A stretch of 64,000 nt of DNA, from contig CAVXTM010000009.1 in assembly GCA_963764725.1 (NCBI GenBank), forward strand, positions 96,001 through 160,000, written 5' to 3'. Origin of the DNA: an uncultured Gammaproteobacteria bacterium. Its GTDB lineage: Bacteria; Pseudomonadota; Gammaproteobacteria; JACCXJ01. How positions within the stretch are numbered: position 1 is the stretch's first letter; every line of letters begins with the position of its first letter. Shown piece by piece: positions 44,061 to 64,000 of this stretch. Made by a program: the position numbers and the translations under genes. The notes beneath the pieces were generated by a model. That model had not been told where the DNA came from. It ran no database searches and saw nothing but the letters and a program-made list of their open reading frames with translations.

Positions 44061-44129
44061 GGCGGATCCCAAACCCGCGGTGATACCTAGAAGTCCTATG
44101 AGCCGGTTCGTTCCGGAGAGGAGTTGACC

Positions 44130-45422: not shown

Positions 45423-45510
45423 CCGTGGTTTTTGCTAGTAGCTTGGATTAAACCGTGGTCGAAGATCTGACTTCGACCGCAACGATTCATTGCGCGGGGA
45501 GGACGACAGC

Positions 45511-46050: not shown

Positions 46051-46095
46051 GAAACCTTCGCCTGCGAGGGGCGCTTGGTAGCGAAAGGATCTTAA

Positions 46096-47554: not shown

Positions 47555-47555
47555 T

Positions 47556-48221
47556 ATGCAATCGCACGCGCTGAGCCATGCCCGCCAACCGCCATCCCCG
47601 CTGCCTGGCTTCGCACACATCAATCGATATTGGGACAGCTTGCATCAGCGGTTCGCCGCCAAGATCCTGCCCGGCGAATATTACGTTACCCGTCGCGAGG
47701 AGATGATCGTCACCGTCCTCGGATCATGTATCTCGGCCTGCATCCGCTGCCGTGCGACCGCGATCGGCGGCATGAACCATTTCATGTTGCCCCAGAGCCG
47801 CGCGGAGGGCGACGGCACGTGGGCCGGTACGGCGGTCAACGCGGCGACGCGATACGGCAATTATGCGATGGAGCACATCATTAACGACCTCTTGAAAAAC
47901 GGGGCAAGCCGTAAATACCTTGAAGTCAAGATCGTCGGCGGCGGCCGCGTCTTGAAACAGATGAGCGATGTGGGGCAGCAGAACATCGAATTCGTCAAAG
48001 CCTATTTGCAGGCGGAGGGTCTCACCGTCAGCGCCGAGGACGTCGGCGATATCTATCCGCGCAAGGTGTACTACGATCCCCGCAGCGGCAAGGTGTCCGT
48101 GAAAAAACTACGCTTGCTGCCCAACGATACCATCTTCGAGCGCGAGAACCGGTATCGGAGTCATATTGAAATCGCTCCTGTGGGCGGTGACGTCGAGTTA
48201 TTTTACGGGGCGATTCGATGA
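47556..48221 (+). CDS. cheD: CheD chemoreceptor glutamine deamidase
   Basis: [25 protein letters not shown]. Confidence 0.95.
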
Positions 48222-49294
48222 GCAAGATACGGGTGGTAGTGGTCGATGACTCGGCGGTGGTGCGCAAGGTCTTAACCGCAATCCTAAACTCGGACACAGG
48301 CATCGAAGTCGTCGGCGTGGCCTCCGATCCCTATCTAGCGCGTGAGAAGATCAAAAAGCTCAATCCGGATGTCATCACGCTCGACGTGGAAATGCCGCGC
48401 ATGGACGGGGTCACGTTTCTCAAGAATCTCATGCGCCTGCGGCCCATGCCCGTGGTGATGGTTTCCTCGCTCACCAAAGAGGGGGCGGAAATCACGCTCG
48501 AGGCAATGGAGGCCGGGGCGGTGGATTTTGTCGCCAAGCCATCGCTGGATCTCACTAATGCGCTCGCGAACTACGGGGAAGATTTGATCGAAAAGGTTAA
48601 GACCGCCGCTGCCGCCCGGGTCCGGCGTTACACCCGAGACATTGCCTTACCCGAAGTCGTGCCAAAGTACAGCGCCGACGCGGTATTGAAAAAAATACCG
48701 GCAAGCAGGCCCTTCAAGACCAGCGAGAAAATCATCGCAATCGGGGCCTCGACCGGCGGCACCGAGGCCATCAAGGAGATTCTCGCCGCGATGCCAGCCG
48801 ATGCTCCGGCCATCGTCGTCACGCAACATATTCCCGAGGCTTTCAGCGGGGCGTTTGCGCAGCGGATGAACAGGATCTCGGCGATGGCCGTGCGCGAAGC
48901 CGAGGACGGTCAGCGGATCGTGCCGGGCCATGCCTATATCGCCCCGGGCAGCCACCATCTCCTCGTGCGCCGGGACGGTGCGCGCTATGTGTGCCGCTTG
49001 CACGACGGCCCGGCGGTCAACCGGCATCGGCCTTCGGTCGATGTACTGTTCCGCTCGGTGGCGCAGAACGTGGGCGCTAATGCGGTGGGTGTGATCTTAA
49101 CGGGGATGGGAATGGACGGCGCGCTGGGGTTGAAGGAGCTGCGCGACAGCGGAGCGCCGACGCTCGCCCAGGATGAGAACACCTCCGTGGTCTGGGGCAT
49201 GCCGGGGGAGGCGGTCAAACTAGGTGGTGTCGATCATATTCTGCCGTTACAGCATATTGGCGCCGAAATGTTGAAACTGGTCCAGCAGCTTTGA
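48218..49294 (+). CDS. cheB: CheB methylesterase/response regulator
   Basis: REC domain plus GASTGG, TQH, RPSVD and LTGMGMDG. Confidence 0.96.
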
Positions 49295-49397
49295 TGCATG
49301 GGGTACACTGCGTTTCGTCCCTTCGAAAGGTAGAGAGGGAGCGGTCATTTTGGAGGCGCAGACCCGCAACTTCTCCTATCGCTTCATCCCGCAAGTC

Positions 49398-51716
49398 TCA
49401 GCTCGCGCGGGTTAAGACACGGGGGCGAAAAAAAGAGCGCGGCGCGGTGACCGCACCCGACCAGTTGCAGCCTACTAAGGCCTCGGCCAAGGGGGCCGCT
49501 TCGCCAATGGCAAAGCCCTGCGCGTAGTCGATCCCGATGGCCCTTAGGGTTTCGAGTAGCGACTCGCTTTCGACACATTCTGCAATCGTCTTGATTCCCA
49601 TTAGATGGGCAACACGACTGATAGCTTCCACCATTTCGCGATCCACCGGATCGCGCATCACATCGCGGATGAAGCGACCATCGATCTTGACGTAGTCGAC
49701 GGGCAGCGTTTTTAGGTAGGCGAACGAGGATAAACCGCTCCCGAAATCGTCCAAGGCAAATCGACATCCCTTGGCCTTTAACGTCGATATAAAGTTTAGG
49801 GCGCTGGTGAGGTTAGAGATCGCCGCTGTTTCGGTGATCTCAAAACAGATGCGTTCGGACGAGACCTGCGAGCATGCCAACTCATTGATTACGAAGTCTA
49901 AGAACCCCATGTTGCCGACCGACTGCCCGGACAGGTTGATGGAAAAGGTGGACTGCGCGGGACAACATTGGTCGAGTGCCGCCAGCGTCGCACGGACTAC
50001 CCAGCGGTCTATCGCCAGCATCTGGTGGAAGCGTTCCGCGGCCGGGATGAATACCCCGGGAAGGTATTGTTCCCCCGTGTCGTCGCGTAATCGCAACAAG
50101 ACCTCGCCGTCTATCTGATCCCCTGCCGCGTTCAGAGGAATAATCGGTTGAACGTAGAGTTGAAATTGATTTTCGGCTAGGGCGCGATGCAATCGAGGGA
50201 TCCATTGCATCTCGCTTTGCCGCCGCAAGAGGTCGATGTTTCCAGGCTCGAATACGTGCACTCGATCTCGGCCTTGTTCCTTGGCAGCGTAGCAAGCATT
50301 GTCAGCGGCGCTTAGCAGATAGGCCGGATCGTCGCAGGCCTCGGTGATCGGCACGACGCCGATACTTGCGCCAACTCTGAAAAGCTTGGTTCCCCACGAG
50401 TATCGGTAGTCTTGGATGTTTTCCCGGAGTTGGTTTGCGATACGTACCGCCTGGTCTAGAGGACATTCACCGAGGATCACCCCGAACTCATCGCCGCCCA
50501 ATCTTGCCAGCGTATCGCGGTCACGCAATTGGCTCTTCAGTAGAGCCGAAAGTTGTCCTAGGAGCTCATCGCCGGCGCTATGACCACAGGTATCGTTTAC
50601 TACCTTGAACTGATCGAGGTCTATGTAGCAAAGTGCGTGTTGCCGCCCTTGGTCTTTGGCATGCTTTTGCATGAGACGTAAGCGGCGCTCGAACTCCCGC
50701 CGGTTCGGAAGCCCCGTTAAGGAATCATGCGCAGCTTGGTACGCCGTCTCTTGAGCGACGAGACTGGCTTCGGTGACGTCGCGCATTATGGCGACCCAAT
50801 GGTTGATTTCTCCGCTGGGGTCGGGCACGGGATCGATGCGCAAGTTCATGACGAACGTGGAGAGGTCCTTTCGATAGGCCGTGATTTCGCCAGCAAAGGG
50901 TTTGCCGACGCGCAGCTGATCTCGCATTTGCTCTAGGACGGAGCGGTCCGTTTGTGGCCCCGCGAGCATGAATATGCTGTTGCCTTCGGTTTCCTGCAGG
51001 GTATAGCCGGTGGTGCGGGTAAAAGCGGGATTAACATAGACGATCCTGTCGCTCGAATCATCCGCTGCTACTTGAATGATTATCGTGCTGTCTTCGGTAT
51101 GCTCGATCGCCGCTTGCAGAAGGCGAAGCGTCCGCTCAGTGCGTTGTCGAACCTCGATATCGTTGCGGAGCTCGGCATTCACGCGCGCCAGCTCCGCGCT
51201 ATGTGTGCGTAAATCGCGTTCGCCTTGCCACTTGGCACTTAACGCCACCGCAAACTGATACACCTCTTGAGAGAAGAACGGTTTTTGGATGAACAAGAGT
51301 TTATCGGGGGGCTGCAGGCGCGCGCCTACCACTTGAACATCCACATCGCTATAACCCGTGACCAGCACGATGGAGATATACGGATCCAGGGCTCGCATCT
51401 GTTCTGCTGCCCAAATACCATCGAGGCCTGGAGGCATTCTTACATCCAGGAACGCTACTGAAAACGGTTGGTCGGCTATTAAAGCCTCGCGAACCGCGGC
51501 GACGGCTTGAGCGCTTTGGGAGCAAAAAGTAACGTCGAAAACGGGTTCAGCGACCGCAACCCTCTCACTCCCGAACAGATCGACTTCAAGCTTGCACAGC
51601 ATTGTCTCCCCAGGCATGCAAGCGCGCGTTGGAGAAAGGGCGTCTCGGTACGCGTCCAGGTTCGAGGTTTCATCGTCAGCGGCCAAGATACGCACGGGAC
51701 GGGGATCCGACTTCAT
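49398..51716 (-). CDS. REC-PAS-GGDEF-EAL protein
   Basis: FLDVRMPPG, PAS YVNPAF, RDRD I-site plus GGDEF, EVLLR and DDFGSG. Confidence 0.93.
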   Translation of the reverse strand: MKSDPRPVRILAADDETSNLDAYRDALSPTRACMPGETMLCKLEVDLFGSERVAVAEPVFDVTFCSQSAQAVAAVREALIADQPFSVAFLDVRMPPGLDGIWAAEQMRALDPYISIVLVTGYSDVDVQVVGARLQPPDKLLFIQKPFFSQEVYQFAVALSAKWQGERDLRTHSAELARVNAELRNDIEVRQRTERTLRLLQAAIEHTEDSTIIIQVAADDSSDRIVYVNPAFTRTTGYTLQETEGNSIFMLAGPQTDRSVLEQMRDQLRVGKPFAGEITAYRKDLSTFVMNLRIDPVPDPSGEINHWVAIMRDVTEASLVAQETAYQAAHDSLTGLPNRREFERRLRLMQKHAKDQGRQHALCYIDLDQFKVVNDTCGHSAGDELLGQLSALLKSQLRDRDTLARLGGDEFGVILGECPLDQAVRIANQLRENIQDYRYSWGTKLFRVGASIGVVPITEACDDPAYLLSAADNACYAAKEQGRDRVHVFEPGNIDLLRRQSEMQWIPRLHRALAENQFQLYVQPIIPLNAAGDQIDGEVLLRLRDDTGEQYLPGVFIPAAERFHQMLAIDRWVVRATLAALDQCCPAQSTFSINLSGQSVGNMGFLDFVINELACSQVSSERICFEITETAAISNLTSALNFISTLKAKGCRFALDDFGSGLSSFAYLKTLPVDYVKIDGRFIRDVMRDPVDREMVEAISRVAHLMGIKTIAECVESESLLETLRAIGIDYAQGFAIGEAAPLAEALVGCNWSGAVTAPRSFFRPRVLTRAS

Positions 51717-51842
51717 CGTGGTGTTAAGGCACGCCTCTCAATGTCTAGGAACATTTTAGCCATAAGGGTGCCGGACGTCGAGGGTCCTCTGCCGCTAGTG
51801 AGCCGCTTATTTTGTGGGGCCTGGCATTGGCATACCGATGTT

Positions 51843-52346
51843 TTAAGGGAGCTGAGATTGGCCACATAGTTTGCTCGCCAAGCCGACAAACTCGACCGCT
51901 AAAAACGGCTTGCTGAAAAACAACAGCTTGGCTGGTGGCGGCACCAGTCCGGCAACGGTATCGAAAGACTCATCGGAGTAAGCCGTTATGAACACAATGG
52001 TTACGTTCCCATCAAGGTTCCGAATACGCTGAGCGGTTCGTACACCATCCATCCCGGGCGGCATTCGGATATCGAGGAAGATGATCTTGAAAGGACATTG
52101 ACGCTGGAGGGCCTCTTGTACCGCCTCCAGCGCCTGTTGCCCTTGCGTGCAGGTGACGATGTCAAAGCTCATGGGATCTTGGCGCGCCGGGCTCAAATTT
52201 CCGAAGAGCCCTTGCTCCAGTTCTTCCAATAGCCTGTGCTCGGCGTCGTCCGGGTCCGGCGAAAAGGCGCGACGAAATGCCTCGAGCACCTCATCGTCAT
52301 CGTCAGCGACTAGGATCCGGCAACGTTGATCGGCGGTTGCATTCAT
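51843..52346 (-). CDS. Single-domain response regulator
   Basis: ILVADDD..FLDIRMPPGMDG..ITAYS..SKPF. Confidence 0.88.
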   Translation of the reverse strand: MNATADQRCRILVADDDDEVLEAFRRAFSPDPDDAEHRLLEELEQGLFGNLSPARQDPMSFDIVTCTQGQQALEAVQEALQRQCPFKIIFLDIRMPPGMDGVRTAQRIRNLDGNVTIVFITAYSDESFDTVAGLVPPPAKLLFFSKPFLAVEFVGLASKLCGQSQLP

Positions 52347-52371
52347 AAGCCCAACGTCGATCTAAGCGCTT

Positions 52372-54321
52372 CTATAACGGGATCAAGATGTGAAAAACCG
52401 TCCCTTGCATCGCATTCTCTACAGAGATCTTGCCCCCCATATTGTTGAGCGTATTGGCACACCAGTGTAGTCCTAGCCCGCCCTTCCCATTGGCTTTTGT
52501 CGTAAAACCTCTCTGGAAGATGGTCTGCTGATGCCCAGGCTCGATCCCCGCGCCATTATCGCGAATGGTTACGCGGAGCATCGGCTCGGCCCCGTCTTTC
52601 TCATGTTCGGCCGTCACCTGAATTATCCCCGCGACTCTCTGCGCACGCCGGATGGCTTCGACCGCATTTAGGAGCACGTTGGTTATGACCTGCACTAAGG
52701 CGATGCGGCGCGTGGCAATGGTCCCGACAACCTCTACGTTCGGATCGATCTGTATCCAAGGTCGGATCGCCGCGTGGTCTGGCAACAGGCTAATAGCTTC
52801 GTCGATTATCGCGGCCACGGTTGTCGATTCGATGATCGGATCGCTACGGCTGAGGCGTTCCTGATCGGTGATGATCCGCTCGATATGTGCCAGGTGCTGT
52901 AGAGTTTGGTAGATCTCCTCGATGGCCTGCTGGCGTTGGTGGGCATGTTGTTTCAAGGCGAGCTGGGCGTACTCGATGAGCTTACGGCGACGATCCTCTG
53001 GGATTTCCATGCCTCCTAGCTCCTGGACCGCAGTCGGCAGCCGTAAGCCCGGCGGCTCTCGCAACTTGCTGATCAGTTGTCCAAGTCGGCTGGTAAGAGG
53101 GGTCAGGGCATTACGAATATTATGCAGCACCCCCGCGGCACTGTCGGCGATCCCGGCCTTATACGAATGCATGAGAATGGTTCGCTTCGCGATCGCCAAC
53201 CTATCCTGCATCTGTTTGAACTCGCGCTCGAGCGTCCCCACCTCGTCATGGCGGGCGGTCATTAGGTGTTTTGTAAGATCCCCGCTTTGGCCGACGTAGA
53301 GGACATGTCGCGTTAAGGTCAAGATGGGGGCCAGGATCATGTAGCGCAACAGCAACCATACCACCAGCACGACCAACGCACTGGCCATTAACAGCGAGAA
53401 GAGCGCTGCCCTGATGGTCTGCGCGCCAGCGGCGGTGGCGACTCGCGGTGTATCTACACGTAGCAATAACAGCGGCTTCCCGTGAATATCCCGCAACAGG
53501 CTAAAGGCGCGCACTACCTGGTCGGTCTCCACGTATTCCACCGTGGCTTTTCCGGCTTTCAATGACCTCGCCGTCGCTTTGTAGGGCTCGGGGAGCGCGG
53601 CTTCGATGGCAGAATATACGGCTACATTGACCTTGGACCGCTCCTCCAGGGCGGCGATGTGTTTTCGATCCAGGAATCGGCCGAATACGCATGTTCCGGC
53701 TACGGGGCCCTCGTGGTTGGTGGTCAATATGGGGAAGGACGATACCAGCATCGGGCTCCATTCGGTTCCGAGGAGCCCTTTGATTGAGCTATCGAGCGAG
53801 GCATGCGACATCATTAGCGCATTCGGTGGCCCCCCTGCCGGGAATGCCGCCGCCATCGGTATTTCGCGATTATCCTTCAGAGACGCGAGCCGCCCCCATA
53901 CTAATCGCTCAGATTGGTCAAAGAACAGCATCATGTTGAGTTCATTGTCCTGCATCCACGAGCCCTCGAGGTTGGTCGCGACATAGGCTGGATTGGACCC
54001 GCTAAGAAACTGGTGGGTCTCGTCCCAGTGGCTCCAATTCAAGTTGATCTTCGCGACCGTCTTGAGGTCGTCAGCGACCAGCTCCGCAACGCGCGTCATG
54101 TTCCTGGCCGCGCTTCCTTGATCGAGTTGCTGGAATACGGGGAACATCACGTAGTTCATGGTGATCTGTGAGAGGCCAAGATAGACCATGAGTAGCGTCG
54201 CCAACACCACGAGCACCTTGGTACGGAGCGAGACCGTGGTGCTCATAACGGAGTCATCGCTCGATGGGCTATGACCCATCGCAGAGCGAACAGAGGGTTT
54301 GCGAAAAATGTGCATAATCAT
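52372..54321 (-). CDS. CHASE4-HAMP sensor histidine kinase (start may be 54246)
   Basis: WSHWDET CHASE4 motif, two TMs, HAMP, VLHNIRN H-box, NVLLNA, DNGAG and GLGLH. Confidence 0.88.
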   Translation of the reverse strand: MIMHIFRKPSVRSAMGHSPSSDDSVMSTTVSLRTKVLVVLATLLMVYLGLSQITMNYVMFPVFQQLDQGSAARNMTRVAELVADDLKTVAKINLNWSHWDETHQFLSGSNPAYVATNLEGSWMQDNELNMMLFFDQSERLVWGRLASLKDNREIPMAAAFPAGGPPNALMMSHASLDSSIKGLLGTEWSPMLVSSFPILTTNHEGPVAGTCVFGRFLDRKHIAALEERSKVNVAVYSAIEAALPEPYKATARSLKAGKATVEYVETDQVVRAFSLLRDIHGKPLLLLRVDTPRVATAAGAQTIRAALFSLLMASALVVLVVWLLLRYMILAPILTLTRHVLYVGQSGDLTKHLMTARHDEVGTLEREFKQMQDRLAIAKRTILMHSYKAGIADSAAGVLHNIRNALTPLTSRLGQLISKLREPPGLRLPTAVQELGGMEIPEDRRRKLIEYAQLALKQHAHQRQQAIEEIYQTLQHLAHIERIITDQERLSRSDPIIESTTVAAIIDEAISLLPDHAAIRPWIQIDPNVEVVGTIATRRIALVQVITNVLLNAVEAIRRAQRVAGIIQVTAEHEKDGAEPMLRVTIRDNGAGIEPGHQQTIFQRGFTTKANGKGGLGLHWCANTLNNMGGKISVENAMQGTVFHILIPL

Positions 54322-54326
54322 TATGC

Positions 54327-55697
54327 CTAAAATGAAAGGACGATCGCAATTTCGAACAAATGGTAGGTTTTATTATCCTGAAAAGCCTCCTCGGCGGCCT
54401 TTCCAGGAAAGGCCGCACCGTAAAGCGCGCTCACAGTGGCTCGCTCATTGATGGCCCAATCGATATAGACGTTTAGCTCGTCAGCGAAATGGCTTGCACT
54501 CACCGGTGTCCCGAAATAGTTGTCCGCATCAAGGGAAAAACTATAGAAAATCGCCCCGAATGCGAGATCCTCGTGGGGCAGGGTGCTCAGGTGGACCATG
54601 TGATTGACCTGATTACTATTGAAAAGCAGCCATTCGCCGGTGATTTCTCCTTGATACCAGGTTCCCCAGCCACGGCTCCAACCGTAGAACAGCGGATCAA
54701 AATCCTCCTCCGCAGTAGCGCCTAGATCGCCCCCGGAGAATTGAGCATAACGGTATCCCAGGGTCGGCGACCACGGCCAGTCGGCCAACGTGTACTGGGC
54801 CTCCGCATACCAGGCCCGTGCATCGATGGCACCGTCGTCGCCGCTGCCCGTCTCCACCGCGTATTCCGCCCATAAGGATAGATTCGGTGCTTGCGGTAAG
54901 CTTAGCTCATTGACGCGCCCGCTCACGAGGTGCATGCCTTCGCGGACGCCAAAATTTAGGGGGGTGGCGTCGAAGACATGAAGATAGGTAAGTCCGAAGG
55001 TTCCATATTCTTCTGAAACGCGCTCAATGTTGATCCCGATCAACTCCGTCAGTTCCTGGTCCGCGTCGGCCTCGAGGTAGAACACATCGCCGCGCACGGG
55101 CTGGGTGTTGATCCTGACGAGGGCTGCGCGCTTATACGAATAGCGCGGTGACAGCCAGGCAGCGCCCTTGCCCAGCTGATCAAGATCGCCGTCGTAGATT
55201 AGGAAACCGTCTCCTATCTTGAACTCCTGGCGACCATACGAGATGTCCAGAACATCGCGGGGCTCCCCATCGCCGACCAGCCCTGCGGAGCTCCATCCGA
55301 TGTAGGCTTGCTCCAGGCCGATGTCGTCGTCGCCCCCGTCGGTGAAGCCGCCTGCGTCTCCATCGCCTATCGTTGCGGTCGCGACCCCGGCCACCCCCGC
55401 ATACAAGCGACCAAGCCGATCGACCTCATAGTCGGCGCGAAGCACAGGCTTGAGGTAGGCCTCTTGCCACTCGGCGTCCCCGGTATTTGCACCGCTGCGA
55501 AGGTCGATACGGCCGAGCCCGAAATTGGTATCTTGGGTGGTGAAGTACCCAAAAGCAGCCTGCAGGCCGGCTTGGATCTCAAACCCGCCTTTTTGGAAGA
55601 CGGAAATTTCGGCCCGTACCAAGGGCGAGAATATCAACGGGATCGCGGCCCAGGCGAGCTGAGCGGCTTTTTTAGTAGTGTGGCAATGTTCCCGCAT
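54327..55697 (-). CDS. Outer-membrane beta-barrel protein (alginate export-like)
   Basis: Signal peptide ..LVRA, GRQEFKIGDGFLI, YAQFSG..FDPLFYG and a terminal Phe. Confidence 0.75.
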   Translation of the reverse strand: MREHCHTTKKAAQLAWAAIPLIFSPLVRAEISVFQKGGFEIQAGLQAAFGYFTTQDTNFGLGRIDLRSGANTGDAEWQEAYLKPVLRADYEVDRLGRLYAGVAGVATATIGDGDAGGFTDGGDDDIGLEQAYIGWSSAGLVGDGEPRDVLDISYGRQEFKIGDGFLIYDGDLDQLGKGAAWLSPRYSYKRAALVRINTQPVRGDVFYLEADADQELTELIGINIERVSEEYGTFGLTYLHVFDATPLNFGVREGMHLVSGRVNELSLPQAPNLSLWAEYAVETGSGDDGAIDARAWYAEAQYTLADWPWSPTLGYRYAQFSGGDLGATAEEDFDPLFYGWSRGWGTWYQGEITGEWLLFNSNQVNHMVHLSTLPHEDLAFGAIFYSFSLDADNYFGTPVSASHFADELNVYIDWAINERATVSALYGAAFPGKAAEEAFQDNKTYHLFEIAIVLSF

Positions 55698-55830
55698 GGT
55701 GCGCGCTAGTGGGCCGCGGCGGCGAGTCACTGGTGGTGGCCGTTATCTGTCCTCGGCGTCGGGAAGGCAATCCGCCATCGGGGCCGCGTGGATCGCATGC
55801 TGTCGTTGATCCTAACGGAGCGTTTGGATA

Positions 55831-56367
55831 CTAGCCGCGCGCGACCTTCTGCAAGGACAAGCCGGAATATCGGGCCTTGGCAAAGCTTGCCGCCTCGATC
55901 TGTGCATAATGCTCTTCAACGATGAACTGCTGCACGATGCCTCTGGCCAGATATCCCTGTTTAAGTGTTTCCGAAAGCAGGTGGAAGTCCTCGATCATGC
56001 CGCGGCATTGAGCCGCGCCGCACCGACACCGCATGGTCCAGTCTCCTTCACTCATCGTCGTTGAGTAATCGAAACGGAGCTCTTCGTGCGCGCGGATGTC
56101 GCGGAGGGCCACCAAGATGATATCGTTCATCAGACCCGTGTTGGGTTGACAGGAGTGGTTAATGTACAACCCCGGTGGCTCTACATCGATATAATGCCTG
56201 GATCCGATCTGGACGGTGTTCCCTTGTTTTTCAGCCATAGCACGAACTTGATCGACGGTAATCACATAACCCTCGAGAACCAGAATCATCTCGCCGGCAC
56301 GAATCCGTTTCAACGCGAAAAGCCCCTGGCCGATCTCGCATTCCCTTACATGCACCCTAGTGCTCAT
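55831..56367 (-). CDS. SET-domain (lysine) methyltransferase with post-SET cysteines
   Basis: GQGLFA, YINHSCQPN, EELRFDY and CRCGAAQCRG. Confidence 0.92.
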   Translation of the reverse strand: MSTRVHVRECEIGQGLFALKRIRAGEMILVLEGYVITVDQVRAMAEKQGNTVQIGSRHYIDVEPPGLYINHSCQPNTGLMNDIILVALRDIRAHEELRFDYSTTMSEGDWTMRCRCGAAQCRGMIEDFHLLSETLKQGYLARGIVQQFIVEEHYAQIEAASFAKARYSGLSLQKVARG

Positions 56368-56386
56368 CGTCTAGCCCCATACGTCA

Positions 56387-56725
56387 TCAAAGGAAGCGCC
56401 CGAGCAACATCAAGGAGGCAACAGCCATGCCGATCCCTACCACCTCTCCCAGGTCCAGGCTCTCGTTAAAAAACACGATCCCAAGCAAGGTCAAGAACAG
56501 CACGAACGAAACGGAGTACACCACGCTGGCGATTGCTAACTTGATATGCAGAAAGACAAACACCGTGCCGAAGGCAGTAGAGGCGTAGATGATCAGCCCA
56601 ACCGCGAACCACATGGTCTTAAAAGGGTCCGGAAGCTCCGCGGCGCGTTTTAAGAAATAATCCCCGACTACCGCGGTGAGGCTCAGCAAAATGGTGATGA
56701 CTATGGCAAGGGCGGGTTTACTCAT
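56387..56725 (-). CDS. Small 4-TM DMT/SMR-like transporter
   Basis: 112 aa with four hydrophobic helices, GDYFLK..FFNESL..GI. Confidence 0.75.
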   Translation of the reverse strand: MSKPALAIVITILLSLTAVVGDYFLKRAAELPDPFKTMWFAVGLIIYASTAFGTVFVFLHIKLAIASVVYSVSFVLFLTLLGIVFFNESLDLGEVVGIGMAVASLMLLGRFL

Positions 56726-56797
56726 GGCTACATTGACCGGTTGTTATTAACGGCTTGCAACGTATGGATGGCTGGCGTATGAGCGAGGAGCGCCGGG

Positions 56798-57625
56798 CTA
56801 GCGATTCGGGGCAGAGTCTCCGCACAGGCCCGGGCTCTCGCATGGCGAATGACCCGTAACGACGATCTTGCGGTTGCCGTTACCGGCGGTATAAAGTTTA
56901 AAGCTGGTCCAGGCCACGTTGTTGGTATAGTCCTTTTCCAAGAACACCCCCGCCGGATTGGCGGTGCTGACTAGATGGTAGGTTCCATTCGGTACGTCGG
57001 TGAGATCGAGGTCTTGGCCTGTTGTCGCGTGGTGGTATTGGTCCACCCAACCCGCCGACACCCCCTGATAGCCCTCGCTGCAATCCCAGAATTCGCGTTC
57101 GGAGGTGGGTGAATTCCCCTCGAGTGCGTACCAGTCGATCAAGCAAAAAGTAACCTTCACCGAGTTCTCTCCCGCAAGCACCTCCGAGGGGCCACTCTCG
57201 GGGTCGAGGGCAGGCGCGCGGATCTCGAACTGGGCGATGTCCCCGATGTGCCAGTGATTATGCGCGGGATGAAAGGCGTAGTTACTGGCCTCGCACTCTA
57301 GGACGACCTGTCCGTCTTGGTCGCGGATCTCTTGAACGGCGTGGGTTTCGTTAAGGGCAAGATCATTGACCGGTCGAACGGCCCAGGGACCGGCACCGGT
57401 GTTAGCGATCCCATTCGAGAACCGAAGGATATCGCGTTTGTCAGAATGCACTAGCTGAAGGTGCCGAGGGACCACCGTCCGTATGTCGGGATAAAGCTCG
57501 CGGGGCCCGTCCTTTCGCGCTTGCGCGCAATCCATTTCCGCCCCTTCCGCTTGCGCGCAATCCATCCCCCCCCTCAATGCTGTGGCCAACGCGATGTAAG
57601 CCGCTGCTGTCTTAGATGAAATCAT
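56798..57625 (-). CDS. Secreted lysyl oxidase-like protein
   Basis: LRFSNGIANTG, Cu-binding HNHWH, KVTFCL (candidate LTQ Lys), GWVDQY (candidate LTQ Tyr) and ANP..E.DYTNN. Confidence 0.85.
   Translation of the reverse strand: MISSKTAAAYIALATALRGGMDCAQAEGAEMDCAQARKDGPRELYPDIRTVVPRHLQLVHSDKRDILRFSNGIANTGAGPWAVRPVNDLALNETHAVQEIRDQDGQVVLECEASNYAFHPAHNHWHIGDIAQFEIRAPALDPESGPSEVLAGENSVKVTFCLIDWYALEGNSPTSEREFWDCSEGYQGVSAGWVDQYHHATTGQDLDLTDVPNGTYHLVSTANPAGVFLEKDYTNNVAWTSFKLYTAGNGNRKIVVTGHSPCESPGLCGDSAPNR
57518..57565. repeat. 18-bp direct repeat with a 30-bp period, in-frame MDCAQA x2
   Basis: CGCTTGCGCGCAATCCAT at 57518-57535 and 57548-57565. Confidence 0.85.
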
Positions 57626-57799
57626 GAGCCGTTATCCTCAGTTGCCGTAGTTAAGTTCTTAGCAATAGCGGCTGAACTGTCTTCTGAATCATTGAAAAAT
57701 CCTAACCCGCTGGGAGTCATATTTTTGGCGGATGCCGCCCGGGTGCAGCCCGCCAACACCTGAGCGGGCGTCAACACTGAGTCGCCGGCTTGCGGAAGG

Positions 57800-58150
57800 C
57801 TTACGGTCCCAGGTGGAGCGGAGTTGATAGGGATGGGCGCCCAGCACTTGCTTCGTAAACCGAATGTGGAGCGCGTGCCGATCGGGCAAGACGAAAACCG
57901 GAACCGGTGTGCCGTCCGGCCACTTGGTCTGGTGCACGAAGAAGGTAGTCCGCTGCTCGCGCCCGAGAGGCGGGTTAGAATAATTCGAGCCGGCGTAGGG
58001 TCTTACGATTGAATCAGCGCTGGCGGGGCCCGCCGGCCAGAGCAGGAGCGGCAGGAGCCCACCCAAGAGAAAGCGCGCGAGTGCAGCCCGCCGCCCACGC
58101 CCCGCGTCGAAGCACGCAACACACTTTGCTCGCAGATAGAAACCGGACAT
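57800..58150 (-). pseudogene. Truncated periplasmic binding protein-like gene
   Basis: Signal peptide ..GPASA, then KWPDGTPVPVFVLPD..H..F...LG..PYQLR..WDR. The sequence after this looks unrelated. Confidence 0.55.
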
Positions 58151-58451
58151 CTCCCTCCCCTCTCCCCGCGCGAGAAATAGTGTAGCACAGGGTTCGGTAC
58201 GTAACAGCCAATCCCGCAATGCTTCGCGCTCCAGATATCAACATCTTCGCGCCCAGCACCTCAACTCCTATCTCAACTTCCACCGCCCTTGTGACGCGGC
58301 CGGCACTGGGGAGTAGAATCACCCCGCCGGACGCTCATGCCCACCCTGGGGGCCGTCTGGCCCCTACGCGGTCCTAGGCTTGCTCGGGTCCGCAAACGGG
58401 GGGTCTAACATCCTCGCTTACGTTCGACGCCTACTCGATAGGGACGTACAG

Positions 58452-60287
58452 ATGAAGTACTCAGCCGTTGTGTTTACGTTGATCCTGACTGGCTCCGTCG
58501 CAGCGGATGCTCTCACCCGATCGGGGGACCAGCTCCAGCCCGACCCGGGCGGCCTCGTCGAGGTCACGATGGACAGCACGGTCGGCGTCGTGCTCGACGA
58601 GATCCCTGAGAGCCTGCGCACACGCGCGGCCGGCTATTACCTGCAAAAGGGGGACGCGTTCTGGCGCGACCGCGCGCAGTTCCAGATCCGTCATACGACC
58701 TATCGCCTCACCTACCGGAACTTTTATTACGAGGACAAGGGTATGCTCGCGTTGCCGCCCCGGGCGCTCTGGAACATCGACCTCGATCCAAGCGGGGCGC
58801 GGCATGTCAAGATCCAAGGACACGACGCGGTGGTCATCGACTACCGGCTCGAGACGACCCTGCTTAGCGACCGCGACTCTCCCGGCGAAGCCGAGCGCAA
58901 GCTACGCCGGGTGGGCGGCGTGTGGAAGGAGCCGTTCAGTTTCCCGCTCGATCCCGAGTTCCTCTTCCAGCGCACCGGCTACGCTTGTGTGGACGAGGAC
59001 GGGTATCCGCCGCGCACGGCCGAGTCGGAGAATGCCTGGCAGCTCTTCGATCAGGACTGTACCGTCGAAACGCCCGACGAGCCATTGTGCCACCTCACCG
59101 AGTTTCCCGACGAATCGTGCAAACCGGCCCTCAGGCGCCACGCGGGCCGCGTCAACACGCACCTCCGCTTCGAGCGCATCGCTTGGGACGCCGATAAGGC
59201 CGACCAGGTCCGCGTCGCTGAGTACACGAACAGCGACGGCCCCGACCTCGAGGTGATCGGTGACGGGCTCTTGAACAACCGGATCGTGTGGCGCTACATC
59301 GAGCCCGACTCCTGTGCCATCCAGGAGCAGTCCGTGGGTGGGCCCGGCTGGCGCCGGCTGCTGGAGTTCGATGCCAGCGTCCGCAACGTCAGCCGCCAGC
59401 CGCTCACCGTCGGGGAGGCCGCGCCCGGTGCGCCCTTCGTGGAGCACAACAACTTCATCCTGGCTGCGTGCCACGGTCACTACCATTACAACCATTACGG
59501 CGACTTCAGCTACTACGGCCTGCCGGGTGACAAGCGCGCCTTCTGCATCGAGTCGACGGACCGCTACTTCAACAGCGAGGAGACCCCGCTCGTCCATCCG
59601 TACTCCTGTGGCTTCCAGGGTATCGCCAGCGGCTGGGGGGACACGTACATCGCCGGCATCGAGGGCAACTGGATCGACATCACCAACATGGACATCCCGG
59701 CCGGGGGGGCCAGGAAGGACCTGCGCTTCCGGCTGAACCCCGACAATTTCATCTGTGAGGGCACCCCCGTCCTCGACGAAGGCGGCAACCAGATCTTCGA
59801 CCCGACCGTCATCATCGGCGAGAACGGGAAAACGGTCGACCGGCCGCGCTGCGAGTTCGTGGCCGACCACGACGAAAATAACTTCGAGGAGCGCCGGATC
59901 CACATCCCGCGCGACGGCTCCTTTATCACCTCGCCTTGTACCCGCAGCCAGGCAGGCCCGCTGCGCGACTGCGGCTGGAGGGAGCAGGCGGAGAACCGCA
60001 CTTGCGAGCCGGGCAGCACCGTCACCCTGAGCTGCCACACCGGGCCGCAGGCGCCACTCCAGGCCCTGCGTATCTGCGAAAACAGCTTGGAGCGCGGCGG
60101 CGTCATCGCCTGCATGTTCCGCGAGGCGCTCGCCACGGCGATTGTCGGCCCGGTACCCACCGCGGTGACCTTCGCCTGCCCCATGCCGCGCGTGCCGAAC
60201 GAGCCGGGCGGATCCTACGGGTACTTCGCCGCGGCGGTCCTGCCCGCCGACCTGGCCCGCCCGGTCACGTGCCAGGTCGTTCCGTAG
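58452..60287 (+). CDS. Large secreted Cys-rich lysyl oxidase-like protein
   Basis: Signal MKYSAVVFTLILTGSVAA, RRLLEFD..VRN, CHGHYH, KRAFCIES, QGIASGWGDTY and NWIDIT. Confidence 0.85.
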   Translation: MKYSAVVFTLILTGSVAADALTRSGDQLQPDPGGLVEVTMDSTVGVVLDEIPESLRTRAAGYYLQKGDAFWRDRAQFQIRHTTYRLTYRNFYYEDKGMLALPPRALWNIDLDPSGARHVKIQGHDAVVIDYRLETTLLSDRDSPGEAERKLRRVGGVWKEPFSFPLDPEFLFQRTGYACVDEDGYPPRTAESENAWQLFDQDCTVETPDEPLCHLTEFPDESCKPALRRHAGRVNTHLRFERIAWDADKADQVRVAEYTNSDGPDLEVIGDGLLNNRIVWRYIEPDSCAIQEQSVGGPGWRRLLEFDASVRNVSRQPLTVGEAAPGAPFVEHNNFILAACHGHYHYNHYGDFSYYGLPGDKRAFCIESTDRYFNSEETPLVHPYSCGFQGIASGWGDTYIAGIEGNWIDITNMDIPAGGARKDLRFRLNPDNFICEGTPVLDEGGNQIFDPTVIIGENGKTVDRPRCEFVADHDENNFEERRIHIPRDGSFITSPCTRSQAGPLRDCGWREQAENRTCEPGSTVTLSCHTGPQAPLQALRICENSLERGGVIACMFREALATAIVGPVPTAVTFACPMPRVPNEPGGSYGYFAAAVLPADLARPVTCQVVP

Positions 60288-60413
60288 CGGCGTGGGCGGC
60301 TCACGACTCCTCTGGCAAAGGCGCCGTTTCCGAGACACGGCGTCGGTCACGAGGATGTACTCAGGAGCCAGGCTCCGGCCGGACCGGCGGCTTCGGGGAG
60401 GACTCCATCCGCG

Positions 60414-61403
60414 TCAGCTCGAAGCGATGTTTGGGGACGGCGCCGGGGTAGAGTACAAGAAGCAGTGGGCGTGATGAGACTGCGTGAACGCCGTGGCCGG
60501 CGGGTAGTCACGCCGGCAAGGAGAAAAGACCTTGGGACAGCGCGGATGAAAGTAGCATCCCGCGGGCGGGTCGGCGGGGGAGGGCAGTGTCCCGCCGAGG
60601 CGCACCGTTTCGCGCTGCGTGACTGTATCGATGTGCGGTACGGCCGCGAGCAGGGCTTGGGTATAGGGATGCTTCGGGTTCTGCAAGACCTCATCGGCGC
60701 GGCCTTGTTCCACGATGCGTCCAAGGTACATCACTGCGACGTAATGGGCGAGATACTCGACGACGGCGATATTATGGGTAATGAAAAGATAGGAGAGCTC
60801 AAGCCGATCTTGCAGATCTTTCAGCAGGTTCAGGATCTGCGCTTGCACGGAGACGTCGAGCGCGCTGGTCGGTTCATCGCAGATGATGAGCCTGGGATCC
60901 ACGGCGAGCGCCCGTGCGATGCAGATCCGCTGGCGCTGTCCGCCCGAGAACTCGTGCGGATAGCGATGCTTGGCGTCGGGGTGCAGTCCGACTTGTTGCA
61001 GTAGCTCATCGATACGCTGCTCGTGCACTCGGCCGCCGGTTTGCTGGGCGCGCATACCTTCTTCGATGATCTCGGCGACAGTCATGCGCGGGTTCAGGGA
61101 GGCGTACGGATCCTGGAAAATGATCTGCATCTCCCGCCGCCGCCGGCGGAGCGTTTCTCCGCTGAGCGAGCGCAGGTCTTCGCCGTCGAACCGCAGGTCC
61201 CCCGAGGTAATGGGCGCCAGCCGCAGGATCCCTTTGCCCGCGGTGGTCTTCCCGCATCCGGATTCTCCGACCAAGGCGAGCGTCGTTCCCCGCCCGATGC
61301 TGAATGACACCCCGTCCACCGCGCGCACATAACCGACGGTGCGGCGCATGAACCCCCGCCGGACGGGGAAAAAGATCTTGAGATCGTTGACTGAAAGCAT
61401 CAC
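60414..61403 (-). CDS. Oligopeptide/dipeptide ABC ATPase (OppF/DppF-like)
   Basis: GESGCGKTT, FSGGQRQR, CDEPTSALD, HPYT and GCYFHPRC. Confidence 0.92.
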   Translation of the reverse strand: MMLSVNDLKIFFPVRRGFMRRTVGYVRAVDGVSFSIGRGTTLALVGESGCGKTTAGKGILRLAPITSGDLRFDGEDLRSLSGETLRRRRREMQIIFQDPYASLNPRMTVAEIIEEGMRAQQTGGRVHEQRIDELLQQVGLHPDAKHRYPHEFSGGQRQRICIARALAVDPRLIICDEPTSALDVSVQAQILNLLKDLQDRLELSYLFITHNIAVVEYLAHYVAVMYLGRIVEQGRADEVLQNPKHPYTQALLAAVPHIDTVTQRETVRLGGTLPSPADPPAGCYFHPRCPKVFSPCRRDYPPATAFTQSHHAHCFLYSTPAPSPNIASS

Positions 61404-62455
61404 CGGGCCGAGGTCCGGCGGGCCTGGTATAGATCCGTGGCCGGCGCCTTCCCGGTCGCCATGGACGGGCGTTGATTCGGCGCGGACGCGGCCGTGTAAA
61501 GGAGGCAACGAACCGTGCGCTCGCCGTCGATGGCGGCTAATGCTGGAACGGATTGACGGCACTCGTCCCACGCGTATCCACAGCGCGGTGCGAACCGGCA
61601 GCCTGTGAAGCGTTGCGTTAACCTGGGCACGGTGCCGGCAATCACCGCCAGCTCCGTACCGCGCTTTGAGATCCCCGGAACGGAATTGAAGAGCTTTTGG
61701 GAATACGGGTGGGCGGGGGAATAAATAAACAACTCTCGATCGGCTTGCTCGACGATCTGCCCGGCATACATGACCGCGACCCGATCCGCGACCTGGGCGA
61801 CGACGCCGAGATCGTGCGTGATGAGCATAATCGCCATGCCCCGGTCTTTTTGTAGCACCTTCAATAGATCGAGGATCTGCGCTTGAATGGTGACATCAAG
61901 AGCGGTCGTCGGTTCGTCCGCGATCAAGAGATCTGGGGCCGCACTGATCGCGATAGCGATCATGACCCGCTGTTTCATGCCGCCCGACAACTGATGGGGG
62001 TAATCGCCTAAGCGCCGCTGCGGGTCCGGGATCCCCACTGCATCGAGTAATTCGAGCGCGCGCGCCTCGACCGCCCGGCCGCGCAGTCCCCCGTGCCGCG
62101 CGAGTGTTTCGGTAATTTGCGCCCCCACGTTCATGACCGGATTGAGCGAGGTCTGGGGCTCTTGGAAAATCATGCTGATCCGCGCCCCGCGGATAGCGCT
62201 CATCCCCGCCTCGGTGAGTTGCAACAGATCCCGTCCGTGGAGCCGGATCCGGCCCGAGACGATGCGTCCGCCGGGAGGTAGCAATCGCAGGAGGGAGAGG
62301 GCCGTCATCGACTTACCGCATCCCGATTCACCGAGTAATACGAAGGTTTCGCCCTGATCGATGTGGAAATCGACGCCATCGACCGCGCGTACCGGACTCG
62401 GTCCGGCGCCGATCCAGGTGCGCAGGTCTGAAACTTCGAGCAGACGAGCGGTCAT
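61400..62455 (-). CDS. Oligopeptide/dipeptide ABC ATPase (OppD/DppD-like)
   Basis: [25 protein letters not shown] and GCRFAPRC. Confidence 0.92.
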
Positions 62456-62536
62456 GGTGAGCGGATGTGTTCCCCCTCGGCGTTACGGCAACGCCATGGA
62501 CTCAGAGCTTGCTCACTACGATTTCTTCACAAACTC

Positions 62537-62956
62537 TCAGCCGTTTTCCGGAGGCACGGCGCGTGGGCAGCGGTGTTCATCCAGGGCCACGTAGGTGAGC
62601 ACGGCTTGGGTCACTTTGATGCATTCGGCTCGGGCCGGGTGGCGTTCGGCGTAGACCTCGACCTGGACCGTAATCGAAGTACGCCCGACGCGCAACACCT
62701 CGGCGTAACAGCTTACAAGATCGCCGACAAACACCGGCTCACGAAATTCCACGGAGTTGACGGCGACCGTGGTGACCGGTCCGCGCGCCCGCCGGATGGC
62801 GGCAATGCTGCCCGCGATGTCAACGTGCGAGAGGATCCAGCCCCCGAAGATGCTGCCGGCGTAATTGGTATCCGCCGGCATGGGCACGATTCTCAAGGTC
62901 GGTTCTTTCCCTATCGGAAGGCTAACCGAAGTGGAAGAAGCTACGCTTCCCGGCAC
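62537..62956 (-). CDS. Acyl-CoA thioesterase (YciA-like hotdog fold)
   Basis: MPADTNYAGSIFGGWILSHVD..VGRTSI..TYVALD. Confidence 0.9.
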   Translation of the reverse strand: MPGSVASSTSVSLPIGKEPTLRIVPMPADTNYAGSIFGGWILSHVDIAGSIAAIRRARGPVTTVAVNSVEFREPVFVGDLVSCYAEVLRVGRTSITVQVEVYAERHPARAECIKVTQAVLTYVALDEHRCPRAVPPENG

Positions 62957-63097
62957 GTTTATTCTGAAATACCCCGCTGTTTACGACGGGCGCTTTAGCA
63001 TTGGGTTTCCAAAGGGGAGTAGTGCAACTCTCCCCTTTGGTCAAGGGCGGGGTTCATACTCCGCCCGCGAAGTAAAATTGATTCCGGGCATGGGCGT

Positions 63098-63733
63098 TCA
63101 ATAGATGACCAATAAGTTGAAGACACTCGGTCTCAACTGGATCTCCTTGACCTTTAGCGTAGCCTCCGCCACACAGCTCGCATTTTCATTACCCTGCATG
63201 TCTTCAGCCACCGCGGTGACCGCCAACGACGCTTTGCATTGTTGTCCGGGCTGGAGCGAAATTAAGTGCTTCTTCGTAATTGAGGCGAATTCCCCGGAAG
63301 CAGGGTTAAGCTTGTTGCCTGCGGAATCTTGCGTCGCTTGAGCGATCGTTTTCGTCTTATTATTTATGCGTAACTCAACCGTGATTTTTGCCTGACCGCC
63401 GGTTGGGGCCACGTTAAGACGGCTGCGGTAATCGTAGACGCCCACGACATAGTAACGCCCCGGTTTCTTTGCCTTGGCCTCGAATTCATGACCGAGCAGG
63501 GATGTCGCTTGCGCTCGCCCGGCCCCGGTGACGCTTGCCGAGACCTTGATCTGCCCGCTGGTCGCGTCTTCCTCGTGGGTGGCGCTGTTGGCGGGGGAAC
63601 TGCTGTCCGCGCTACCCTCGGCAACGGTAAGCTTCGGGGGCCGAATGATCAAGGTTCTGGCATCCAATATCATGAGGATGATGAACACAATAAACGATGC
63701 GGAAAAGAATGCGAAAAGCAAGATGAGTTCCAT
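63098..63733 (-). CDS. Hypothetical membrane-anchored beta-rich protein
   Basis: N-terminal TM helix and RBS-like GGAG upstream. No family recognised. Confidence 0.6.
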   Translation of the reverse strand: MELILLFAFFSASFIVFIILMILDARTLIIRPPKLTVAEGSADSSSPANSATHEEDATSGQIKVSASVTGAGRAQATSLLGHEFEAKAKKPGRYYVVGVYDYRSRLNVAPTGGQAKITVELRINNKTKTIAQATQDSAGNKLNPASGEFASITKKHLISLQPGQQCKASLAVTAVAEDMQGNENASCVAEATLKVKEIQLRPSVFNLLVIY

Positions 63734-64000
63734 GCGCGATCTCCGGTTAATTATTCTGCGGCGGCGCTCTCAGCGCTTTATCTTGTTATTCCGATCCGGT
63801 GAACTCCGGTGACGAACTCGGTAAAGGTCACAGTATCATACGCGCAGGGCTGTTCCAACGCATGGCGTTGAGACGATTTGCGGACGCACCGGCGCGAATT
63901 CCCTAAAGCTCATGGGTTTCGAGATTCAAGCCTGCGCACGCGCCCAATGACGCGGAGCTGGTGACGATTGCCGTGCTCGCCCGCTCCTTGACGAGATAGG

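Follow-up and report, generated by a model that had tools for sequence, protein, structure and literature searches.

A probable clade-specific mosaic island in an uncultured gammaproteobacterium, with two lysyl oxidase-family genes beside an SMR-like/SET gene pair

Most prokaryotic lysyl oxidase (LOX)-family proteins consist of the LOX domain alone, as stated in the account of Grau-Bove et al. 2015 (PMC4448552), which also describes the native role of bacterial LOX as unknown. The single prokaryotic LOX to have been assayed, HTU-LOX of Haloterrigena turkmenica, is described in PMC6452851 as displaying a relaxed specificity for primary amines. Bacterial LOX and bacterial SET-domain proteins alike are mostly without known substrates, and a genuine LOX-SET operon would give a handle on both. 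The subject here is a locus within a 64,000-nt stretch of DNA from an uncultured gammaproteobacterium (‘the window’, by which is meant the whole of the stretch analysed; positions are in window numbering). At this locus two LOX-family genes, one small and one big, are found beside genes for a SET-domain methyltransferase, a small membrane protein that resembles SMR and ArnF-type proteins, and an outer-membrane beta-barrel. The locus does not provide a substrate handle. Its LOX genes are recent, separately acquired, and individually expendable.

Among described SET proteins, the window SET may be set beside the KMT2/MLL core as well as beside BurB (PDB 9L4T). The latter is a SET-only protein of 172 aa which, as described in PMC12542666, methylates free methionine. 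As with both, the window SET consists of SET plus post-SET, with NHSC, FDY, and CxCxxxxC motifs, and as with BurB it is SET-only and similar in size (~170-180 aa). It differs from BurB in lying outside of any bur-type cluster, and in the PDB its profile scores higher against the SET domain of MLL1 (75.9 bits, 2.2e-20) than against BurB itself (58 bits, 6.8e-15). Because the SET-only BurB methylates a free amino acid, possession of SET motifs does not fix a protein as substrate, and the window SET may by this analogy have a small-molecule substrate.

With LOX the comparison is to the LOX/LOXL proteins, here human LOXL2 (PDB 5ZE3). Common to both window proteins are the Lysyl_oxidase family (PF01186), the HxHxH copper site, the Lys and Tyr that form the lysine tyrosylquinone (LTQ) cofactor, the fold, and signal-peptide-like N-termini. 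The differences are that the window proteins are without SRCR or propeptide domains and are 14-23% identical to LOXL2 over the Foldseek alignments. The small LOX resembles the prokaryotic proteins of PMC4448552, so far as described there, in being a LOX domain alone, while the big LOX departs from LOX/LOXL by its conserved N- and C-terminal domains, belonging to a family of roughly 600-700 aa with at least 168 cluster representatives. The beta-barrel is comparable to that of AlgE-type alginate export, exceeding the Pfam cut-off over most of the profile and possessing a signal-peptide-like start. Unlike in the AlgE system, no alginate or polysaccharide synthesis genes adjoin it at the locus, its neighbours instead being SET and a CHASE4 kinase. 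The small membrane protein is similar to SMR-family (EmrE, Gdx) and ArnE/ArnF-type proteins in its ~110 aa, its four hydrophobic stretches, and its weak matches to both Multi_Drug_Res and EamA.

The first-pass annotation of this DNA suggested that these genes may form a pathway that methylates, exports, and then oxidises or cross-links a lysine-containing substrate. Instead, the locus is probably a recombination-prone, mosaic accessory island confined to a narrow subclade of a gammaproteobacterial genus, consisting not of one lysine pathway but of three separable units: the two LOX genes, the SMR-like/SET pair, and a barrel together with sensory and cyclic di-GMP (c-di-GMP) genes. The island is composed of known families and on this reading is a clade-specific mosaic. 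Its features, by position, are these:

49398..51716, minus strand: RR-PAS-GGDEF-EAL protein (c-di-GMP turnover), an open reading frame (ORF) and the final gene of the co-oriented run
51843..52346, minus strand: single-domain response regulator (Pfam Response_reg 1.7e-12)
52372..54321, minus strand: CHASE4-HAMP histidine kinase (Pfam CHASE4 2.8e-31, HAMP, HATPase_c)
54327..55730, minus strand: outer-membrane beta-barrel of the Alginate_exp (AlgE-like) family (Pfam PF13372 1.1e-8)
55831..56367, minus strand: SET-domain methyltransferase with post-SET, predicted cytoplasmic (Pfam SET 1.1e-12)
56387..56725, minus strand: SMR/ArnF-like membrane protein, 112 aa (Pfam matches sub-threshold)
56798..57625, minus strand: small LOX-family copper amine oxidase, predicted secreted, 275 aa (Pfam 2.9e-15)
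57518..57573, minus strand: in-frame tandem duplication of 30 bp near the N-terminus of the small LOX (alignment and repeat scan)
57689..58219, minus strand: ORF176, conserved small protein of 176 codons between both LOX genes (no Pfam family)
58380..60287, plus strand: big LOX-family protein, predicted secreted, 635 aa from the first start (Pfam 2.9e-10)
49328..57803, no strand: subclade-specific block of 8.5 kb, extending from the replaced 3' end of ORF176 up to and including the RR-PAS-GGDEF-EAL gene
58210..60377, no strand: 2.2-kb insertion holding the big LOX, between the ORF176 and ABC ATPase genes

The minus-strand run (49398-58219) proceeds from ORF176 to small LOX, SMR-like, SET, barrel, kinase, receiver, and then RR-PAS-GGDEF-EAL, with gaps in that same order of 63, 72, 19, 100, 5, 25, and 126 bp; the big LOX, on the plus strand, is divergent from ORF176. 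The first-pass placement of two LOX genes, SET, and barrel holds, with ORFs at those positions and Pfam scores above cut-off, as does its observation that SET lies 19 bp, on the same strand, from the gene for the small membrane protein. Its same-strand run of small LOX, transporter, SET, and barrel was right as to order but ended too soon, as the run continues past the barrel, whose stop is followed after 5 bp by the kinase, and on into the receiver and RR-PAS-GGDEF-EAL genes. In a scan of the DNA, promoter-like sites were at chance level (5 versus 3.0 +/- 1.6 expected), and there were 7 terminator-like sites versus 7.5 +/- 2.7 expected, none of them inside an intergenic gap of the run.

Whether the LOX genes travel with the others can be read from three sets of loci. 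These are a set of 41 genomes (G000 plus 40 relatives); a LOX-centred scan of species genomes, limited to the best 80 of its 373 confirmed loci; and a SET-centred scan of metagenomes, likewise limited to the best 80 of 583 confirmed loci. Neighbours were scored by tblastn as well as by hidden Markov models built in this analysis, with SET sought within 10 kb of LOX. Several genomes are marked unpublished (G001, G002, G005, G007, G008, G009, G010, G012, and G308) and others are unmarked (G003, G006, and G114). The main argument is carried by G003, G006, G029, and the metagenome loci, and in the congener comparisons G003 and G006 give the same picture as the unpublished G001, G005, and G008.

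Among the 80 LOX-centred loci, SET was found in two, an SMR-like gene in one, and the barrel and the kinase in none. One of the two SET-containing loci (L031, a ‘Chromatiales bacterium’ record) is from a sister species and has the same gene order as the window; the other is from an Actinomycetota metagenome-assembled genome (MAG). When the 865 neighbouring ORFs were clustered, no family occurred in more than 11 of these 80 loci. Seen from the other side, LOX is present in 2 of the 80 SET-centred loci (L111 and L112), both from near kin with SET proteins 85-88% identical to that of the window. The recurrent linkage of LOX, SET, transporter, and barrel which the first-pass annotation had offered as a check on its pathway thus is not seen for LOX with SET nor for the barrel with either, and its pathway is not supported on these counts, nor by the occurrence of barrel homologs without these neighbours and the independent LOX deletions described below. 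One of the gene links it had drawn does recur, that of SET with the small transporter-like gene (9 of 54 loci), while those of LOX and of the barrel do not, and its own caveat, that adjacency here could be accidental, best fits the LOX genes and the barrel.

Matches to the small LOX occur in 8 of the 41 genomes, with only that in G003 being close (80%) and the others 30-39% identical; matches to SET occur in 10, again with only that in G003 close. Across the class, LOX is found in 5 of 401 genomes. Loci around six other LOX-like genes from the family and class (in G001, G007, G009, G012, G114, and G308) were without a SET or SMR-like ORF, and the window SET protein as query found no SET in G001, G002, G007, G009, G012, or G013. 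The congeners G001, G002, and G007 possess a different LOX-like gene, adjoining SspB and without SET; in G001 and G007 a LuxR-type gene follows at some distance. ORFs upstream of other LOX-like genes show no homology to ORF176. The small LOX has its closest relatives (50-66% identity) in Gaiellaceae, Thermoleophilia, and Chloroflexota MAGs, versus 30-39% for the LOX-like proteins of its own family.

Two further observations concern these other LOX genes. Ahead of the congener LOX-like gene, at L023:9949-11250, L024:8083-9787, and L030:1664-3334, the three loci share a small ORF that is rich in Cys and begins with a signal-peptide-like stretch. In two Herpetosiphonaceae MAGs (L032:349-8333 and L033:109-8050), the closest small-LOX relatives (61%) have an RTX-repeat protein of 1166 aa on one side and a subtilase S8 peptidase on the other, which possibly are secreted partners or substrates of this LOX subfamily.

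The pairing of the SMR-like gene with SET, by contrast with the LOX links, does recur. SMR-like neighbours were found using a profile built from SMR-like proteins, and a SET locus was considered to be informative if it retained at least 400 bp on both flanks. Of 54 informative metagenome loci among the best 80 SET loci, nine have an SMR-like gene directly beside SET on the same strand, versus 0 of 21 loci with one flank and 0 of 5 with neither. Gene order is SMR then SET in six of these nine and SET then SMR in three. Two of the nine are from near kin (L111 and L112), and in the other seven the SET protein is 38-54% identical to that of the window. Linked genes are scattered through one half of the SET tree, and the pairing is seen in unrelated genomes and in at least six distinct contexts, including a resolvase/HTH/TrwB-like element (L113), radical SAM and SNF2 genes (L120), a TonB receptor, YfiR-like protein, and kinases to one side with LigD to the other (L121), and a double solute-binding protein plus hybrid kinase (L141 and L145). 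As the SMR-like gene is rare, found in 2 of 401 Pseudomonadota genomes with the window genome included, chance adjacency to SET is negligible. On the evidence of this recurrence, the SMR-like and SET genes are predicted to be the only conserved functional unit of the island. No published account of such a genomic pairing turned up in the literature searched, and a review of bacterial SET proteins from 2014 (PMC3980110) nowhere uses the term ‘operon’ or ‘transporter’.

Two of these loci merit separate mention. At L113:6791-11736 the partner that comes after the SMR-like gene is an ORF of 359 aa containing two SET stretches, and the pair is flanked by an HTH gene and serine recombinase as well as by a TrwB-like coupling protein; judging from these genes, the SMR-SET module there appears to ride a mobile element. 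At L141:8910-9974, on the minus strand, a flavin-type amine oxidase (Amino_oxidase, NAD_binding_8) is convergent to the SET-SMR pair.

As for the proteins of this pair, the window SET scores 48.7 bits against Pfam SET (PF00856; cut-off 22.4) and has no signal peptide. Its motifs, NHSC at 70, FDY (within ELxFDY) at 99, and CRCGAAQC (the post-SET CxCxxxxC) at 114, all are invariant in the family alignment, and a conserved C-terminal helix region, DFHxLP...YLxxGIVxxFI, sets off the subfamily. The small protein was called a DMT exporter in the first-pass annotation. That stands to the extent that it resembles, from its sequence, a four-transmembrane (4-TM) DMT-superfamily protein, but it is a 112-aa SMR/half-EamA-like protein that is not formally an SMR member, falling below both Pfam cut-offs (Multi_Drug_Res, PF00893, 21.8 versus 23.7; EamA, PF00892, 16.9 versus 28.2) and well below that of the NCBIfam EmrE family (26.1 versus 162). 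In the ESM Atlas the cluster closest to it carries the automatic name ArnF (score 0.97). Its first and last predicted helices have conserved acidic residues and, among 79 homologs at E<=1e-3, D22, K26, and E88 are invariant. The first-helix acidic residue differs from that of EmrE in being the Asp of a GDYFLK motif, and may be the counterpart of EmrE Glu14. Membrane-embedded acidic residues of SMR/DMT proteins bind substrate or protons.

Within the subclade the LOX genes are expendable one at a time. In G003, contig C352 aligns to window 56193-58266 and again from 60338 onward, with 36 nt of the big LOX (58537-58572, 97% identical) left between the two, and is without window 58267-58536 and 58573-60337; a whole-genome search of G003, which is 98% complete, found the big LOX nowhere. 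L111 instead has kept the big LOX, with ~135 nt remaining from the 5' part of the small LOX ORF (57476-57611) followed by a jump to 56731, at the SMR start. L112 is without window 56770-57720, its breakpoints differing from those of L111. Three close relatives, that is, have each lost one LOX by a deletion of their own, two of them leaving remnants, and the window alone keeps both. The ancestral locus, as these alignments would have it, possessed both LOX genes, with three independent deletions following. All four subclade members, L111 and L112 being judged at the locus only, have retained SET, SMR, barrel, and at least one LOX beside SMR-SET.

Public metagenome contigs display similar joints. 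These contigs were placed at 80% likeness, such that the joints may include other organisms, and only contigs joining across a gene are used as evidence, differences in depth between the LOX genes being left aside. Contigs join across the big LOX at 58115>60401, 58091>60397, 58155>60417, and 58572>60351, and across the small LOX at 56764>57719/57721 and 57611>57804. GC content at third codon positions (GC3) is 0.871 for the big LOX versus 0.63-0.73 for the other island genes. Between the window and G003 the small LOX has a synonymous divergence (dS) of 0.52, versus a dS of 0.116 for SMR in the same genome pair, the SMR protein being identical, which suggests that the small LOX allele was swapped by recombination (allelic replacement). 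All genes compared are under purifying selection (dN/dS, nonsynonymous over synonymous divergence, of 0-0.47), with the big LOX (0.42) and SET (0.47) the most relaxed.

The island's boundaries are visible by blastn against congener loci (L207, L208, and L210), where homology breaks off at 57804 and is found again from 49327. Those congeners that are without the block (G006, G001, and G005) align up to 49327 on the CheB side, then over 57804-58209, which is the 5' part of ORF176, and then from 60378/60384 onward into the ABC ATPase, with window 58209 joined to 60378/60384 by 113-124 bp. The big LOX, since congeners align to 58209 and again from 60378/60384, is a separate 2.2-kb insertion (58210-60377). 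The 8.5-kb block (49328-57803), in turn, replaces a 4.6-kb congener cassette, which in G006 and G001 encodes a protein of ~420-430 aa, a dCache_3-PAS-GGDEF protein, and a terpene synthase (family-2 in G006). The G006 cassette is L208:10109-14434; its 432-aa protein is without a Pfam hit and is not similar to the window barrel, and its G001 counterpart has a sub-threshold Porin_O_P match. No tRNA gene was found in window 44000-64000, nor direct repeats at the island boundaries. An insertion of LOX, SMR, and SET into a fixed backbone made up of ORF176, barrel, and sensor was considered and is rejected, as blastn places barrel and kinase inside the replaced block and as the kinase is missing from 5 of 5 congeners.

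ORF176, next to the ABC ATPase, belongs to the backbone; homologs occur in 14 of 21 relatives, which also rules out its being non-coding. It has a signal-peptide-like N-terminal stretch and probably starts near 58150. Over its last ~35 codons congeners have a different sequence, the divergence setting in after STWDR, and the island junction at 57804 falls inside of the gene. That same breakpoint recurs, being where congener homology ends, where the L111 rearrangement starts, and where loose ends and a joint are found in metagenome contigs. An ESM Atlas search with ORF176 was uninformative (best score 0.80); the protein may resemble small PstS-like periplasmic proteins.

By sequence and by structure model, both LOX genes are genuine members of the LOX family, of different subfamilies (22% identity to one another) and with catalytic sites intact. 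Against Lysyl_oxidase the small LOX scores 56.9 bits and the big LOX 40.5 bits (gathering cut-off 20.4). Catalytic residues are H122/H124/H126, K157 (KVTFC), and Y197 (DQY) in the small LOX and H365/H367/H369, K385 (KRAFC), and Y423 (DTY) in the big one. Across nine LOX-like sequences, from the window and relatives, H122, H124, H126, K157, F160, C161, C182, D195, and Y197 are invariant (small-LOX numbering), and in another alignment H122 is invariant and the other catalytic residues nearly so. Both proteins align with LOXL2 over the HxHxH, K-x-x-F-C, and D-x-Y stretches, with H122/H124/H126, K157, and Y197 of the small LOX found opposite WHDCHRHYH, KASFCL, and DMYRH of 5ZE3. The LTQ precursors of LOXL2 are described as being Lys653 and Tyr689, which, judging from the motifs, are the aligned K and Y.

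The AF2 model of the small LOX (pLDDT 87.1, pTM 0.82) has 5ze3_A as a Foldseek match with E 2.5e-10, probability 1.00, and TMq 0.54; for the big LOX (pLDDT 92.9, pTM 0.90) the same match has E 7e-10 and probability 1.00, with TMq low, 0.24, as the central domain alone matches. The first-pass description of two divergent LOX-like genes retaining HxHxH, the K-xx-FC lysine, and the D-x-Y tyrosine thus is borne out by Pfam, by alignment, and by fold. The big LOX consists of an N-terminal domain, a LOX domain (~320-460), and a Cys-rich C-terminal domain, with the terminal domains finding no clear PDB match by Foldseek; its probable start is M25, at window 58452. Its family comprises 1575 cluster representatives at E<=1e-3, or 168 if the threshold is E<=1e-30, and many of the alignments are full-length. 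The nearest cluster relatives of the big LOX and of SET are named ‘hypothetical protein’ and, once, ‘lysyl oxidase’. The signal-peptide-like N-termini of both proteins are read from sequence. The 30-bp duplication of the small LOX (MDCAQA... repeated) lies directly past its signal-peptide-like stretch and is missing in G003 and in the L111 remnant.

The barrel scores 34.7 bits against Alginate_exp (cut-off 25.2) over profile positions 78-389 of 395. It has homologs in 4 of 41 relatives, and those in G010 (56%) and G029 (42%) have no SET, SMR, LOX, or kinase beside them. At E<=1e-30, a search of five congeners found the kinase in none of them. The replaceable block that holds the small LOX, SMR, and SET also takes in barrel and kinase, two genes that were not seen together outside the subclade. 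The RR-PAS-GGDEF-EAL protein has an ortholog in L027 with EAL, GGDEF, PAS, and Response_reg domains, and is 97.8% identical in amino acids to that of L111 (dN/dS 0.15).

Several observations weigh against the island being a mosaic of separable units with SMR-SET as one of them. The pairing of SMR with SET is a minority state, with 45 of 54 informative loci lacking it, and it is absent from all 10 SET loci from the class as well as from the 29 best SET loci from 400 Pseudomonadota genomes, where there is no LOX either. Island genes besides the big LOX have similar GC3, and co-transcription of the run is possible, given its tight same-strand spacing and the lack of an intergenic terminator-like site. 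In the Actinomycetota locus (L059), SET is found 4.2 kb from LOX, behind a Glu/Leu dehydrogenase gene. An amine oxidase beside the SMR-SET module occurs twice, via different enzymes, i.e., LOX and the flavin-type oxidase of L141. With at least one LOX retained in all four subclade members, LOX function could be selected in an SMR-SET context, and there may be a weak functional link to LOX.

The tight same-strand spacing, the co-location of both LOX genes with SET, no further LOX or SET gene having been found in this 4.2-Mb genome, the retention of SET, SMR, barrel, and a LOX by the whole of the subclade, and the L059 locus are also what can be said for an integrated pathway, one in which a lysine-bearing substrate, once methylated by SET in the cytoplasm, leaves by way of the SMR-like protein and is oxidised or cross-linked by LOX in the periplasm or beyond, with the barrel passing substrate or product through the outer membrane. 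Such a pathway is nonetheless very improbable given the lack of recurrence outside the subclade, the seven SMR-SET loci found there without a LOX-family gene or AlgE-like barrel, the ease with which either LOX is deleted, the compositionally foreign and separately inserted big LOX, and a barrel that sits against the kinase and elsewhere is found without these neighbours. In addition, established LOX chemistry calls for a primary amine, which an epsilon-amine is no longer once fully methylated, so that LOX cannot oxidise it. An alternative that assigns the barrel differently is a c-di-GMP-controlled matrix or envelope island, with kinase, receiver, and GGDEF-EAL protein regulating, barrel secreting a polymer, LOX cross-linking matrix proteins, and SMR-SET a passenger. 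The block from small LOX to GGDEF-EAL indeed behaves as a single replaceable cassette of similar GC3, barrel and kinase are 5 bp apart, the congener cassette pairs an outer-membrane-like protein with a dCache-PAS-GGDEF sensor as well, and cross-linking is chemistry of the LOX family. In window 49000-64000, however, neither a polysaccharide synthase nor a candidate substrate gene of Lys-rich or collagen-like type was seen among the ORFs, the barrel has only a modest score against Alginate_exp, the cassette's own candidate is unlike the window barrel, and the small LOX was deleted twice with barrel and kinase kept, all of which leave this an unlikely account.

Rivals exist for the SMR-SET pair as well. 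The SET protein may act on a protein lysine, whether of a nucleoid or membrane protein or of its SMR-like neighbour, with the 4-TM protein then an anchor or target rather than a transporter. Consistent with this are the retention of all lysine-methyltransferase motifs, the best PDB matches being to histone lysine methyltransferases such as MLL1, and adjacency in both gene orders, which fits a physical pair too. In the other direction, D22 and E88 of the SMR-like protein are invariant and predicted to be membrane-embedded, as are substrate- or proton-binding residues in SMR/DMT proteins, and the SET-only BurB, as so far described, acts on a free amino acid; a protein-lysine role is rated as unlikely. 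More adventurous, and similarly a slim prospect, is that the SMR/ArnF-like and SET proteins together are an undescribed two-gene system which makes and then exports or flips a small cationic N-methylated compound (an amino acid, polyamine, or lipid head group). SET would act there, BurB-like, as a small-molecule methyltransferase, and LOX, of which every subclade genome seen has at least one, would be kept beside the pair for acting on the same pool of amines outside of the cell, oxidising unmethylated amine while the methylated one is protected.

To return to the mosaic island of three units, its substrates, its export step, and any cross-talk between units I infer from the families involved. 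The two LOX proteins, as secreted copper amine oxidases that were separately acquired and each are dispensable in relatives, would form LTQ from their own Lys and Tyr and would convert primary amines, peptidyl-lysine or free, outside of the cytoplasm to aldehyde, H2O2, and NH3. A cytoplasmic SET would N-methylate an amine-bearing substrate, and its 4-TM SMR/ArnF-like partner would move the cationic methylated product across or into the inner membrane; cytoplasmic methylation followed by membrane passage may be the most economical reading of the pair. The AlgE-like barrel, CHASE4 kinase, receiver, and GGDEF-EAL protein would make up an envelope-sensing and c-di-GMP unit. Two things follow that may be of use. 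That this SET subfamily recurrently pairs with a predicted 4-TM protein of SMR/ArnF-like type is a lead that can be tested, suggesting that the SET product crosses a membrane, and the natural series of genomes with both LOX genes, the small one only, or the big one only at a single locus is a ready comparison for the role of bacterial LOX.

Beyond the big LOX, at 60414-62455 on the minus strand, an oligopeptide-type ABC ATPase is split into two overlapping ORFs, of 351 aa and 385 aa with a 172-nt overlap. In L031, L111, and L208 the same ATPase is one fused ORF of 679 aa with two ABC_tran domains, and the split in the window would be a frameshift near 61400-61570, whether real or an assembly error.

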